64,000 nt of DNA from assembly GCA_044230415.1 (NCBI GenBank), contig JBGARE010000001.1, forward strand, positions 369,195 to 433,194, read 5' to 3'. Shown piece after piece: positions 20,202-26,160 of the stretch (positions are counted from its first letter, which is position 1; the number at the start of each line of letters is the position of its first letter). The notes beneath the pieces were generated by a model that was given only the letters and a program-made list of their open reading frames with translations, was not told the origin of the DNA and did not search any database. Both the position numbers and the translations under genes were made by a program. This DNA is from Kofleriaceae bacterium. Its GTDB lineage: Bacteria > Myxococcota_A > Polyangia > Haliangiales > Haliangiaceae.

Positions 20202-20810
20202 CTAGCCGATCTCCATGATCGAGATGATGCGTCCCTCGGTCACGAGGATCGGCCAGGGCGTCAGCCCGTTCGGTCCCGCGTCCGCGAACAGCTTTGCGAG
20301 CACGCCGCAGAACGCTTGCAGGTGATTCTGGTCGCCGCTCGCGCGCGCGAACGACGTGGCGAACAGGTGCGCGCGTTGCGGGATGCCCACGAGCACCGAG
20401 CCTCCCGGCGCCGACAGCATGCGCGCGGCCTCCCGCATGAACGCCGCGTCGACGATCCGCTCGGCGCTGAGGAAGTCATCCATCGACGCGATCGTCCCGG
20501 GCATCACCTCGGTCCATGTCGCGCGTCGCTCGCGTAGATTGCGTACCGCTTCGCCCAGGTACTCGTCCATCGACGCACCGATCGCCTCGAGCCGCTCGGT
20601 CCGCACATACGCGCGCTGAAACGTGCCGGAGTTGGGATCGCCGATGAAGTGCACCGGTGCGAGCAGTGGCACGTGGCGCAGCGAGAGCCCTTTGACGAGC
20701 GGCACGCACACCTGGGTCGGTGCGCGCTGCCACGTATCGGGCATCAGGATCGGAAAGGCGGGGAGCAGGTCGTTGCCGTGGGGAATCGCGTAGCGGGTCT
20801 CGAATGTCAT
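20202..20810 (-). CDS. Hypothetical protein (202 aa), third gene of the ADA-giant operon
   Basis: Internal start MTFETRYAIPH at 20810 overlaps the pentapeptide-repeat gene stop as ATGA. The upstream part of the listed ORF is Arg-rich read-through. Confidence 0.55.
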   Translation of the reverse strand: MTFETRYAIPHGNDLLPAFPILMPDTWQRAPTQVCVPLVKGLSLRHVPLLAPVHFIGDPNSGTFQRAYVRTERLEAIGASMDEYLGEAVRNLRERRATWTEVMPGTIASMDDFLSAERIVDAAFMREAARMLSAPGGSVLVGIPQRAHLFATSFARASGDQNHLQAFCGVLAKLFADAGPNGLTPWPILVTEGRIISIMEIG

Positions 20811-21553
20811 GTCGTCCTCCGGTCGGCCCACATCGCGAGCACCGCGTCCGGGTTGCGAACATCCGAGCCATCGCCTGCATCGGAGAAGTCGGGCTCGATC
20901 ACGTGGACCGGGCCTTCGATGATCGCGAGGCCTTTCACGCCGGCGAACTTGCAACGCGTGAACGTCGTGTCGCGAAAGCGACGATCGGTGAAGTCGGCGC
21001 CGCGGAAGTCGCAGTTCTCGAAGTGGGTCTCGTACGTGCGTCCGCCGCGCTCGGAGCCGATCAGAATCGTGTCCCGAAGGTCGCAATCGAGAAGATGTGA
21101 CTTATCGATCTGCGTGTCAGCGAACGCGCAGTCGCGGAATGAGCAGCCTCGGATCGTGCAGTCGATGAAGCTGGCGTTCGCGAACGAAGATCCGTCGAAC
21201 GACGAGGCGTCCAACAACGCGTAGAAGAAGTGGGACGAACGAAAGTCGATTCTTGGAAGCCGACATAGCTCGAAGGTCGCGTCGTAGTAACTCGAGTGCG
21301 ACAGGTTCGCCGTATCCGACCAGCACTCGAGGAATATGGCTCCGTCGAACGTCGAGTATTCGATCCCGGTGTCGGAGAACTTGCAGCGAACCAAGGTGGA
21401 CCGCTCGAACGTCACCCCGGAGAATCGCGCACCCGAGAAGTCGAGATCTTCAATGCGCTCGAGTGGGCCCGATCCAGGTCGGTCGTCGTTAATCCATCGG
21501 CCGTGGTTTAGCATTCGATCGATGGTGAGGTGTTCGCGCCAATGTCGCATCAA
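20807..21553 (-). CDS. Pentapeptide-repeat protein
   Basis: Long run of A(D/N)LxX-type pentapeptides (…ANASFIDCTIRGCSFRDCAFADTQIDKSHLLDCDLRDTIL…). The start overlaps the giant gene stop by 4 nt. Confidence 0.8.
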   Translation of the reverse strand: MMRHWREHLTIDRMLNHGRWINDDRPGSGPLERIEDLDFSGARFSGVTFERSTLVRCKFSDTGIEYSTFDGAIFLECWSDTANLSHSSYYDATFELCRLPRIDFRSSHFFYALLDASSFDGSSFANASFIDCTIRGCSFRDCAFADTQIDKSHLLDCDLRDTILIGSERGGRTYETHFENCDFRGADFTDRRFRDTTFTRCKFAGVKGLAIIEGPVHVIEPDFSDAGDGSDVRNPDAVLAMWADRRTT

Positions 21554-24500: not shown

Positions 24501-26160
24501 GTGCCGACTCCGCCTGCGCGGTCGCCATAGCGGCTGGATCGTCGACGTGCTCGAGCGCCGTGGCGAGGCTCGTCACGCGCGGGGTCGCGACGCGTTGGAA
24601 GTGAGCATCGAGTTGCTCGTCGACGCTGCGGCCTTCCGGCGAGGTCGTGTGGCCGACGGCAGCCATCCCGACGGCTGTGGTCTGCGCCGCGATCGCATCG
24701 AGCTCCTCGACGCGCTTCGTGACGAGGCGAGCGCGCTGCTGCGCGTTCGCCTTCACGGCCGGATCCGGCGACGCGAGGTCCGGATCGGTCAAGGCGGCGT
24801 CGATCGTCGCCTGATCGCCGTCGCGCGTTCCTTGCCGGAATGCGAGAGCGCGCGCTTCGAGCTTGTCACCCGACGCGAGCGCCTTGATCCGCAGGTAGAG
24901 CAGCGGATCACCCGCGCCGAACCGCTCCTCGATCATCTCCATCCACGGCTTCTCACCGCGTTCCTTGGCCTTGCTGTCCCACTTCGCGCGCGCCTCCGTG
25001 ATGCCGGCGGGCGTCATCTTCTCGAGCTCCTTCAGGAGATTCTGCGAGCTGCGAGCGTCTCGGTTGTGCTCCGACTGCTTGTCGAGCTTCAGCCCGTCGC
25101 CTTCAGCGCCCGCGAACGGATCGCGCAGCAGGTCGGCAACCCGGGCGCCGTTGGCAGCGTCGAGGTCGTCGTGCGCGAGCGCTGCGAGCTCGGCGCGCTG
25201 ATCGTGCGCCACGCCAGTCCATGCCATCGCCGCTGCGGGAAACCGGCGTTGGAGCTCTTTGCGCTGCGGTGACGACAGGTCGCGCAGGATCTCGCCGATC
25301 CTGCGCGCATCATCGTTCGCATTCGCGAGCGCGATCGATGCCGCGTGAACCGGATCTCCCTTCAACGCAGCGACCGCGACGTCTTCGTTCGCACCCGACA
25401 ATGCGCGCTCGAGCTGTTCGTACAGCGATTCGTTGCCATGCGTTTGTTTCCGCACTGCACGGCGCAGCGCCTCGATGTCCTCGGGAGTCTTCCCCGCGAG
25501 CGCGCGGTGGATCGCTTGCGCATTGTCGGCTTCGTCCGCGCCCCGGCGTCCGATCACGTTCGCGAGCTGCGTCGCCGTCGCATGCGCCTTGACGTCGAGC
25601 GCGGTCCGATCGGCTTTCGACATGCCCGCGATCCGCTTCTCGGCGGCGGCACGCTCGGGCGAGACCAGTGCGAGCGCTTGTGCCTTGTCGTGGTCGCCGT
25701 ACCAATTCGACGTAGCGAGGACCTCGGTCAGGTCGCGCTTCGTGCGCTCGCGGAACCTGCCGAACACGATCGCGCGAAGCCCGGGCTCGTCGATCCGATC
25801 GAGCTCGTTCAATAGACGGAAGCGCCCGTCGCGTTCATCCGTGTGCTCGATCGCGGAGACGAGCGTATCGACATGACGCTCGGCCACATCGTGGGTCAGC
25901 TTCTTCGCGCCCGCCGTGGATGCGGTCAGTTGCGCGGTGACCTTCGCGGCCATCTGCGCCGGTCCGAGCGTGCCGTCGTGGTCGTGATCGACCCACGCGA
26001 GCATCGCCATCGGGTCGGGAGCTCGGCCGGGAACGCGCGGATCGACCAGCGACCTGGGCGCGGTCTGCGCGACGCCAGTCCAGAACAACTCCATCCCAGG
26101 TGCGCCAACCATCGGGGATTCTTCGTCTTGCGATGCGCGTCGGCGGGCGTGGTCTCCCAT
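21550..26160 (-). CDS. Giant toxin-like protein with C-terminal adenosine-deaminase-like (amidohydrolase) domain
   Basis: C-terminal ADA signature order: HxH (GVDLHNHFMG), HVGE (like HAGE), RLGHAT (like RIGHG), LATDGQG (like SLNTDDP). Upstream are a roughly 150-aa Gly/Ala-rich hydrophobic segment and an HP-rich linker (HPVAHPHAPAHP…HPHPHDTVVHPHP). The true start may be M17 or M23 (MELFWTGV). Confidence 0.7.
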   Translation of the reverse strand: MGDHARRRASQDEESPMVGAPGMELFWTGVAQTAPRSLVDPRVPGRAPDPMAMLAWVDHDHDGTLGPAQMAAKVTAQLTASTAGAKKLTHDVAERHVDTLVSAIEHTDERDGRFRLLNELDRIDEPGLRAIVFGRFRERTKRDLTEVLATSNWYGDHDKAQALALVSPERAAAEKRIAGMSKADRTALDVKAHATATQLANVIGRRGADEADNAQAIHRALAGKTPEDIEALRRAVRKQTHGNESLYEQLERALSGANEDVAVAALKGDPVHAASIALANANDDARRIGEILRDLSSPQRKELQRRFPAAAMAWTGVAHDQRAELAALAHDDLDAANGARVADLLRDPFAGAEGDGLKLDKQSEHNRDARSSQNLLKELEKMTPAGITEARAKWDSKAKERGEKPWMEMIEERFGAGDPLLYLRIKALASGDKLEARALAFRQGTRDGDQATIDAALTDPDLASPDPAVKANAQQRARLVTKRVEELDAIAAQTTAVGMAAVGHTTSPEGRSVDEQLDAHFQRVATPRVTSLATALEHVDDPAAMATAQAESARKLREGTSELRAGGQLSTASQIYRARLDGDEERVAEILEGLPDKAAVAATELDYRAKYRADLVPAIDADAITAKRDFDRLYGEERSTEETAASLRDDPATRIDDVRVEGPRASRSPAVQVRLDRKRRQLGSSDAVANRDEMAEVLFGSAAGSEKRRSWAIDAEADAIDGPAEDFDRLATHTHAMHRMAREEKIAMADELATMIAIAGKLAAIATLNPAAIAAIDAVVGLASIYIKADIMGEAYKGGTEELVGVGITVATDLAMLPIAKISSAIKRAAVTIGITSVSTVAQNDVAGNTAATPLDLLRNLFLSLVVNPLGDWAESIGGNTLGKGFNVGTNFLGNSVANGDASWTTALDSGNGVLAKHPVAHPHAPAHPSRHGDAIVHPHPHDTVVHPHPEAATKHEPYRGDRTAKHPTEAAPTQPARWHPDPVKNAALAQHAKREGHSGVDLHNHFMGAVSVDDFALEMGGGTVPLTSEQMLVKVRDAVRGDPDYAAHYKVDADGTKTFDDTGGGQGQRGGDAFNNVKAIEEAQAQIEEKRRGPRGPDTEAEIKRIADNAVDAALSSSKHTPFDGGYSIRDTLVKTYIDKQDPDKGKTPYSNYIRMTLKALERDGILYSEQSQSVNKLAKGNITAEAVAKELAELNKDRAAKGLPPMDVRFLAMIETKFLGAEGDPMTADAKWQEQLANLRKLMERGDIIGVDIASPETSDMTAGGAQMQHRIRDLALMLQAAGAHAGRKLVLRPHVGEGYIEMPDNAHGHKAGFDADHSREHYEKAEANLWAMIDAVERLSKTIGPDGKPLYNPADPNPEIRLGHATHATPELAAKMKELGIVVEVNLGSNAISGSLQDSATNPQGRSESGHLHHMDDHSLLTLAAEGVPIVLATDGQGMMKTQLAYEHRRAARLLNEFRVDGSSTMPVTREVFAAAKGLVPEQASGPYVLTYGELPKAMKDNLDSAQVRLMSEAADRSNVVAQGDANDTRRAP

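Follow-up and report, generated by a model that had tools for sequence, protein, structure and literature searches.

A giant protein with a predicted ADA-fold C-terminal domain and a coupled pentapeptide-repeat partner in a Kofleriaceae genome: a probable polymorphic toxin cassette

Toxins carried by extracellular contractile injection systems (eCIS), including the Photorhabdus virulence cassettes (PVC), are very large proteins in which a long spacer is followed by an exchangeable C-terminal toxin domain. Geller et al. (2021, PMC8213781) describe DUF4157 as marking those eCIS toxins whose linkers are very long, list Annexin among the domains enriched in eCIS, and find most of the toxins to be without immunity genes. 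Annexin repeats in the PVC toxins of Haliangium were noted by Zhang et al. (2012, PMC3482391). The locus described here lies in a 64,000-nucleotide stretch of DNA from a Kofleriaceae bacterium (assembly GCA_044230415.1, contig JBGARE010000001.1, positions 369,195 to 433,194), which is referred to as the window. Its central gene encodes a 1536-residue protein, the giant, in which a helical carrier is joined to a C-terminal deaminase-like domain, the predicted warhead, and it is followed directly by the gene of a pentapeptide-repeat protein (PRP). The giant resembles eCIS toxins in its size, long spacer, annexin repeats and exchangeable C terminus; its orthologues are found beside sheath, tube and Pvc16 genes, and other proteins bearing this warhead possess DUF4157, the eCIS core domain. 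It differs from them in lacking DUF4157 and in having no eCIS gene within the 64 kb, and from most of them in having an adjacent immunity-like gene.

The warhead and its partner invite comparison with other systems. Cad1 (also CAAD, the CRISPR-associated CARF-adenosine deaminase; PMC11645235) and RADAR (PMC9994260) use effectors of the adenosine deaminase (ADA) fold that convert ATP to ITP. In common with RdrB of RADAR, the giant contains an ADA-superfamily deaminase predicted to act as a conflict effector; the RADAR pairing of an RdrB-type deaminase and, next to it, an RdrA AAA+ ATPase was not found, and a RADAR-like system was rejected. Unlike Cad1, the giant has no CARF sensor and is not under cyclic-oligoadenylate control; its deaminase is fused to a toxin carrier with an annexin-like N terminus and is paired with a PRP. 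Deaminase toxins of the cytidine deaminase (CDA)-like fold, such as DddA and the toxin deaminases of Iyer et al. (2011, PMC3239186), also combine a C-terminal deaminase warhead with an adjacent immunity gene, but they act on nucleic acids and their fold is unrelated to the amidohydrolase TIM barrel predicted here. The PRP of the window belongs to the same repeat family as Qnr, MfpA, McbG and AlbG. These are self-protection factors whose genes lie beside a toxic function; they shield DNA gyrase against poisons that are small molecules or peptides, whereas the partner of the window PRP is an enzyme domain.

Taken as a whole, the analysis leads us to regard the cassette as probably a polymorphic toxin, with a probable link to an injection system, that deaminates adenine nucleotides and is neutralised by the PRP. 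The general kind of system, a polymorphic toxin with an immunity gene and a probable tie to contractile injection, is already well-known. However, a search of the open-access literature for secreted toxins of the ADA fold returned only CDA-fold deaminase toxins, and neither the ADA-fold warhead nor the PRP immunity family is present in the available excerpts of the 2012 toxin catalogue (PMC3482391) and of two eCIS toxin surveys (one of them PMC8213781). Within that literature, the ADA-fold warhead and its dedicated PRP immunity family appear to be undescribed. A wider claim can be put forward only tentatively: that this is the first recognised family of amidohydrolase (ADA-fold) cell-to-cell toxins, comprising more than 200 clusters and often found on contractile-injection cargo, that it would kill by converting ATP/dATP to ITP/dITP, and that it would be checked by a dedicated PRP immunity family, the first PRPs to inhibit an enzyme toxin as opposed to protecting gyrase.

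Fold and active site of the C-terminal domain

An earlier reading of the DNA, here called the original prediction, had recognised a series of ADA/amidohydrolase motifs in the C-terminal part of the giant. Motifs alone are insufficient for such an assignment, which is settled by structural evidence. An alignment of 14 family members (A2) was used both as a profile and as input for an AlphaFold model of the domain, which has a mean predicted local distance difference test (pLDDT) score of 89.4 and a predicted template modelling (pTM) score of 0.89. The modelled fold is an amidohydrolase barrel of the (beta/alpha)8 type, and the structures nearest to it are deaminases of the ADA type: in a Foldseek search of the PDB the top matches were all members of the ADA family (ADAL, AMPD, ADA, MAPDA and Cad1), the best being ADAL (8qch, E 4e-9). 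The profile retrieved the Arabidopsis N6-methyl-AMP deaminase MAPDA from the PDB (E 3.4e-7), followed by ADAL, ADA and Cad1; a phmmer search of the PDB with the single C-terminal domain gave noise only.

The arrangement of residues in the model is that of a mononuclear metal site, with an HxH motif on strand 1, His on strand 5, Asp on strand 8, the Glu of an HxxE motif and a His on strand 6. The predicted ligands are H1004, H1006, H1297 and D1438 and the predicted catalytic residues E1300 and H1367, all situated where predicted strands 1, 5, 6 and 8 end. They belong to the series H1004-x-H1006, H1297-VG-E1300, G-H1367 and T-D1438, and neither of two independent sets of distant relatives, numbering 21 and 22, shows any variation in HxH, PHVGEG, GH or TD. 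The originally noted series (HxH, HxGE, RxGH and TDG) is therefore present, with the qualification that its last member is the canonical TDD of ADA minus the second Asp. Alignment to E. coli Add with hhalign pairs GH1367 with H221, TD1438 with D278, and a Gly with D279; across the family TD is followed by Gly, Ala or Ser. In ADA the residue lost makes the contact to purine N7, and its replacement by Gly or Ala means that substrate recognition may differ from that of ADA.

The housekeeping enzymes ADA, ADAL and MAPDA (COG1816, PF00962) provide the best structural and profile matches and have the same metal ligands and catalytic Glu and His. The domain departs from them in the altered TDD motif, in additional motifs that are invariant in the family described here (YSEQS, GHATH, ExNLGSN and DDH), in the extent of the alignment with ADA (about 295 of 547 modelled residues) and in its score, which falls short of the Pfam cut-off. 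The module is not covered by any curated family of NCBIfam or Pfam. Judged by modelled fold and catalytic residues, the C-terminal domain is an ADA-family amidohydrolase, and both the class originally proposed for it and the presence of the metal-binding His and Asp residues are borne out by the model, the Foldseek matches and the conservation of the predicted active site.

Exchange of C-termini and linkage to the pentapeptide-repeat gene

Relatives P0006 and P0007 (47 and 35% identity) share the carrier with the giant up to the linker and then continue into unrelated C-termini, and the genes downstream of them are unrelated to those that follow the deaminase carriers. Pfam finds no domain in these alternative C-termini or in the extra tail of P0005. 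The loci of P0003, which carries the deaminase (L005), and of P0006, which does not (L009), have two upstream genes in common, with 85 and 63% identity, indicating that the C-terminal cassette has been exchanged at one chromosomal site. A carrier that stays constant at the N terminus while relatives end in unrelated domains is the pattern of polymorphic toxins, and the likeness to them drawn in the original prediction is upheld, including at one syntenic locus.

The deaminase module itself is mobile. When 1.84 billion representatives were searched exhaustively with phmmer, matches at E <=0.001 came from 213 clusters, and 62 of these clusters reached <=1e-30. Most of the 213 are proteins of 1200-7100 residues that have the module at their end or close to it, and some of these proteins also contain ADP-ribosyltransferase (ART) or calpain domains. 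In other multi-domain giants (L014, L023, L026, L027, L030 and L032), whose lengths run from 1276 to more than 6490 residues, the module occupies an internal position; some of the metagenome-assembled genomes (MAGs) concerned are labelled Enterobacterales, and L027 and L030-L032 make up a separate clade in the deaminase tree. One protein, P0022, combines the module with an ADP-ribosyltransferase domain.

The second gene of the cassette encodes a protein with tandem A(D/N)LXX-type repeats that is matched by Pentapeptide_4 (2.4e-21, 76 bits; cut-off 38) and Pentapeptide (6e-17, 61.3 bits; cut-off 20.2) in Pfam; its matches to Qnr/MfpA models are weak and far below the equivalog cut-offs. A hidden Markov model built from three PRPs was used for a six-frame search of all fetched loci, 16 of which were informative in that the deaminase is at the C terminus and there is sequence beyond the gene. 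In 12 of these 16, drawn from two phyla, a PRP gene begins at the toxin stop codon or overlaps it (the window, L005/L011, L007, L008, L012, L013, L015, L021, L022, L025, L028 and L029), and every PRP match in the flanks lies downstream of the toxin gene and on its strand. The linkage extends to L025 and L028, from genomes of the Vulcanimicrobiota/Eremiobacterota type, where the toxins are short (686-695 residues) and only 28-37% identical. No PRP gene follows the alternative C-termini of P0006 and P0007, and two or three PRP paralogues occur in a row at L005, L013, L021 and L023.

A gene that is linked to the warhead, is independent of the carrier and occurs in arrays of paralogues bears the classical hallmarks of cognate immunity. 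Judged from these sequence comparisons, the PRP is most likely the antidote of the deaminase warhead, and an immunity gene that lies directly downstream and co-varies with the toxin domain is again as found in polymorphic toxins. The partnership suggested originally is thus confirmed in a more specific form: it is the deaminase module, not the carrier, with which the PRP gene is conserved. Genes of another kind are found 3′ of the toxin genes at L005 (15445-16208), L009 (6762-7064) and L010 (6081-7508). These begin with a MKINEVYRQICDNPHDD-type N terminus, which we take to resemble the TIGR02996 repeat-companion domain; L009_101 and L010_475 are weakly similar (E 4e-4). They may represent a second immunity family, for warheads other than the deaminase.

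All of the linked PRPs are acidic (pI 5.1-5.9), which brings into consideration a toxin of the same architecture whose warhead would deaminate the adenines of DNA or RNA instead of free nucleotides and be neutralised by the PRP, which would mimic DNA and occupy the nucleic-acid-binding surface of the warhead. The idea that PRPs of the Qnr/MfpA type mimic DNA and inhibit DNA-binding proteins is cited in PMC7159879, and would be in keeping with the weak match to those models, while the loss of the purine-N7 Asp allows for a non-standard substrate. However, the deaminase domain is itself acidic (pI 5.5), unlike the surface expected to bind DNA, and its best structural matches are deaminases of small molecules and nucleotides. 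To our knowledge, no ADA-fold enzyme edits polynucleotides, and we consider such a substrate unlikely.

The tight linkage to the PRP gene also bears on whether the giant is a toxin at all. The deaminase-like domain could be an ordinary metabolic or inactive binding domain of a large, non-toxic structural or membrane protein, a view that can appeal to the sub-threshold Pfam score. It is hardly credible in the light of the metal-binding and catalytic residues, all of which are invariant across 43 divergent relatives, and of the syntenic swap of C-termini and the PRP linkage, neither of which would be expected for housekeeping enzymes.

The carrier and its proposed delivery

The N-terminal region had been described as helical and Ala-rich. 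It is indeed all-helical, and it can now be recognised as an array of annexin-like repeats. In a model of the N-terminal part, residues from about 90 to 680 are predicted with confidence (pLDDT 80-95) to form tandem five-helix repeats of approximately 70 residues each, as in the annexin fold, and residues 88-354 align (BLAST E 3e-13) to a region of P0059 that Pfam calls Annexin (E 4e-41). The relative P0007 has a weak Annexin match; the giant itself has none in Pfam, and the canonical GxGT calcium loops are degenerate in it, with GWGTDE of P0059 aligning to EHTDER and RRGADE. The carrier contains about eight such repeats. They are preceded by a leader with pLDDT <50, the start of which, MGD(H/Y)ARRK...VGAPG...FWAGV, is kept in P0003, P0004 and P0006. 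Pfam finds no trafficking domain in the giant, and this conserved disordered leader is the only candidate seen. Inspection of the sequence revealed no signal peptide, lipobox, hydrophobic N-terminal segment or HExxH motif; a SitA-type lipoprotein toxin or another signal-peptide route was ruled out on the absence of a lipobox and of a hydrophobic N terminus.

The two segments that separate the repeats from the warhead are as originally described. The Gly/Ala-rich hydrophobic stretch has 22 charged residues in 161 and transmembrane-like segments at residues 752-792 and 802-826 on the Kyte-Doolittle scale, and is conserved across all carriers and in the short relative P0009. The spacer has 15 His and 14 Pro residues within positions 901-1000. 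Both fall in a low-confidence part of the N-terminal model (residues 684-935). The His/Pro linker (HPVAHPHAPAHP...HPHPHDTVVHPHPE) directly precedes a zinc-type deaminase, and in PMC4101493 a histidine-proline-rich protein is proposed as a zinc chaperone for AMP deaminase; a metal-scavenging role of the linker is pure speculation. A GHYAE(D/H) motif occurs after the hydrophobic segment and before the variable C terminus in six carriers (P0003, P0005, P0006, P0007, P0009 and P0020; at residues 307-1076), where it is kept regardless of the warhead. By analogy with VENN in CdiA, it may be a processing or recombination boundary. The giant of the window has no GHYAED at residues 906-995 and has HPHPH repeats there instead. 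The carrier is rare: a profile of the N-terminal part had no match among PDB sequences and found nothing new in a search of 5.8 billion proteins, and a metagenome scan added three loci only.

Among the 43 relatives that have the same warhead, the eCIS core domain (DUF4157) is present in 9, as it is in the genomic relatives L015 and L019, and is the sole trafficking marker. The original prediction had pointed to markers of type VI (PAAR/Rhs) and type VII secretion systems and to MuF; none was found in these proteins, and delivery by type VI, type V or type VII systems was rejected on the lack of PAAR, Rhs, haemagglutinin and LXG domains in them. Orthologues of the carrier at L005 and L007 are encoded 3.5-8 kb from an upstream Pvc16 homologue, and L005 also has sheath and tube genes. 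These loci, together with the presence of the eCIS core domain in other proteins that bear the warhead, lead us to infer that the giant is probably exported by an injection system. A Ser/Thr kinase gene lies between the Pvc16 and toxin genes at L005 (6447-8756) and L007 (435-2138), and one recurs upstream of the toxin gene in L009, L019, L034 and L035; its product may regulate the injection system or the toxin.

In place of an exported toxin, the cassette could be a membrane-anchored abortive-infection or defence module that acts inside the cell, as do Cad1 and RADAR, with the deaminase as suicide effector and the PRP as its inhibitor or sensor. Such a module would account for a PADLOC match to CARF_ADA (E 1.6e-5), for a weak match of the PRP to the Hailong effector HalA, and for the absence of injection genes from the window and from the surroundings of the Eremiobacterota pair; defence systems swap effector modules too. 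However, the PADLOC match is confined to the deaminase core (profile positions 473-562), and no CARF, RdrA or other sensor domain is present. Giants that end in the warhead contain eCIS core, ART, calpain and annexin modules, as is typical of exported toxins, orthologues adjoin eCIS operons, and the rows of PRP paralogues resemble orphan-immunity arrays. A role in defence seems decidedly improbable to us.

If the giant is injection cargo, the PRP could be a chaperone or loading adaptor for it, with the producer protected in some other way. PRP genes are found in spike-tip clusters of type VI secretion systems (PMC11883445); a PRP gene adjoins afp16 in the eCIS of M. xanthus, the Pentapeptide domain is mildly eCIS-enriched, and the lack of immunity genes for most eCIS toxins (PMC8213781) would be consistent with such a function. 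Yet it is the warhead that the PRP tracks, whatever the carrier or delivery context: short toxins with no carrier, encoded at a distance from injection genes, retain it, it is missing where the same carrier has another C terminus, and its paralogue arrays are typical of immunity genes. We therefore give an adaptor function very little credence, and retain the interpretation of the PRP as the antidote of an exported deaminase toxin.

Several observations weigh against that interpretation. The giant falls below threshold in searches with curated deaminase models, scoring 16.1 bits against a cut-off of 27 for Pfam A_deaminase (E 0.006) and 17 against 216.6 bits for TIGR01430 (E 0.0024); the A_deaminase search that had been suggested as a check thus fails for the giant itself but succeeds for relatives L017, L021 and L028, at 29.6-35.5 bits. 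The second Asp of TDD is lost. In 4 of the 16 informative loci there is no PRP gene, and other small genes occupy its position; the PRP-less L017-L019 fall in one deaminase subclade, which also holds the uninformative L016. PRPs known as immunity factors protect DNA gyrase rather than inhibit an enzyme toxin. With regard to delivery, the giant is without the eCIS core domain, the window contains no sheath, tube or Pvc16 homologue or other eCIS gene, and no injection genes are found near the Eremiobacterota toxin-PRP pair. The upstream neighbourhood in the window and in L033, a 94% relative, consists of a 359-aa protein and two PPC-domain proteins and differs from that of the eCIS-adjacent orthologues. 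Given this neighbourhood and the absence of injection genes from the 64 kb, it is by inference that the link to an injection system is extended to the window copy.

In essence, the proposed mechanism is as follows. The toxin and the translationally coupled PRP would be made together in the cytoplasm, where, as the linkage of their genes suggests, the PRP would bind the deaminase domain, hold the toxin inactive and so protect the producer. The toxin would leave the cell via an extracellular contractile injection system whose genes lie at another site in the genome, and its annexin-like and hydrophobic parts would engage the target membrane. By analogy with Cad1 and RdrB, the warhead would then deaminate adenine nucleotides, most plausibly ATP/dATP to ITP/dITP, and the adenylate pool would be drained, bringing growth to a stop.

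Gene layout, neighbouring genes and implications

The three open reading frames (ORFs) of the cassette were found where the original prediction had placed them, head to tail on the minus strand in the order giant, PRP and a 202-aa protein (Table 1), with junctions that show translational coupling. Overlaps of 4 nt had been reported at both junctions. This is correct for the PRP and 202-aa genes, which meet at ATGA; the giant and PRP genes meet at TGATG, an overlap of 1 nt with the ATG start used by homologues and of 4 nt only with an upstream TTG. The giant has full-length homologues of 93, 59 and 51% identity (P0002-P0004) and a GC content at third codon positions (GC3) of 0.84, in a genome of 67% GC. 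It is a genuine gene and no high-GC shadow ORF, and the plus-strand ORF at 22645..25272 inside it is therefore best read as the shadow. The protein is found in NCBI, ENA and Logan assemblies, and the nearest genome loci are those of Kofleriaceae and other Myxococcota MAGs. Composition was discarded as a mark of recent transfer: the GC of 0.60 in the PRP gene sits in codon position 1 and fits amino-acid bias, and is uninformative.

The 202-aa protein has no Pfam or NCBIfam match, and a PADLOC match to BrxE (E 0.002) was treated as noise. Its gene is confined to near-identical relatives (P0169 on the contig of P0002), the exceptions being L027, with one weak full-length homologue (E 4e-6), and L013, where a remnant of 30 aa survives. 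This narrow distribution rules it out as a conserved partner, and the original view of it is not sustained in that respect.

Table 1. Features of the cassette, in window coordinates (position 1 is the first nucleotide of the window)
Feature	Position	Strand	Basis
Gene 1, 1536-aa giant (carrier and predicted deaminase warhead)	21550..26160	-	ATG-start ORF, GC3 0.84, full-length homologues P0002-P0004
Gene 2, pentapeptide-repeat protein (PRP), 247 aa, predicted cognate immunity protein	20807..21550 (21553 with TTG start)	-	Pfam, TGATG coupling, linkage
Gene 3, 202-aa protein, weakly attached to module	20202..20810	-	ATGA coupling to PRP gene
N-terminal leader, aa 1-63, predicted disordered, candidate cargo-loading signal	25972..26160	-	pLDDT <50, conserved start
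Annexin-like all-helical repeat array, ~aa 88-680	24121..25899	-	
Gly/Ala-rich hydrophobic helical segment, aa 746-905, putative membrane-insertion/translocation module	23446..23925	-	Composition, Kyte-Doolittle
His/Pro-rich linker, aa 906-995, joining constant and variable parts	23176..23445	-	Composition
Predicted ADA-fold (amidohydrolase) deaminase-like toxin domain, aa 996-1536	21553..23175	-	Fold model, motifs

Elsewhere in the window, the minus strand encodes an 823-aa bacterial vault-protein-like product at 463..2931 (MVP_shoulder 1.3e-19, Vault_3 2.3e-10) and, about 3 kb from the cassette, a Y1-type (IS200/REP-associated) transposase at 16651..17370; the Pfam Y1_Tnp match was made on the 239-aa transposase product in L001. 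Two further giants are present. The first, at 9861..14441 on the minus strand, is an ORF of 1526 aa (1700 aa as called in L001) with only a weak HEAT-repeat match. The second, at 32873..37444 on the plus strand, encodes a 1523-aa protein with a strong SUFU domain (1e-40) at residues 890-1053; SUFU-type domains are frequent as immunity modules at toxin loci, and Imm-SuFu is listed by Zhang et al. (PMC3482391). Neither has any similarity to the 1536-aa giant, and kinship with it was ruled out.

If the proposed function is correct, the deamination of purine nucleotides by an ADA-fold enzyme would be a new chemistry among exported bacterial toxins. It would tie these toxins to the ATP-deaminating immune effectors Cad1 and RdrB, with the same weapon being used for self-sacrifice and for attack, and PRPs would acquire a new role as inhibitors of enzyme toxins. 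The carrier, with its annexin-like and hydrophobic parts, is a candidate membrane-engaging delivery module for injection cargo, and would as such be relevant to the engineering of these systems. Since the toxin and the PRP form a compact pair whose conservation extends across phyla, they lend themselves to direct testing in E. coli.

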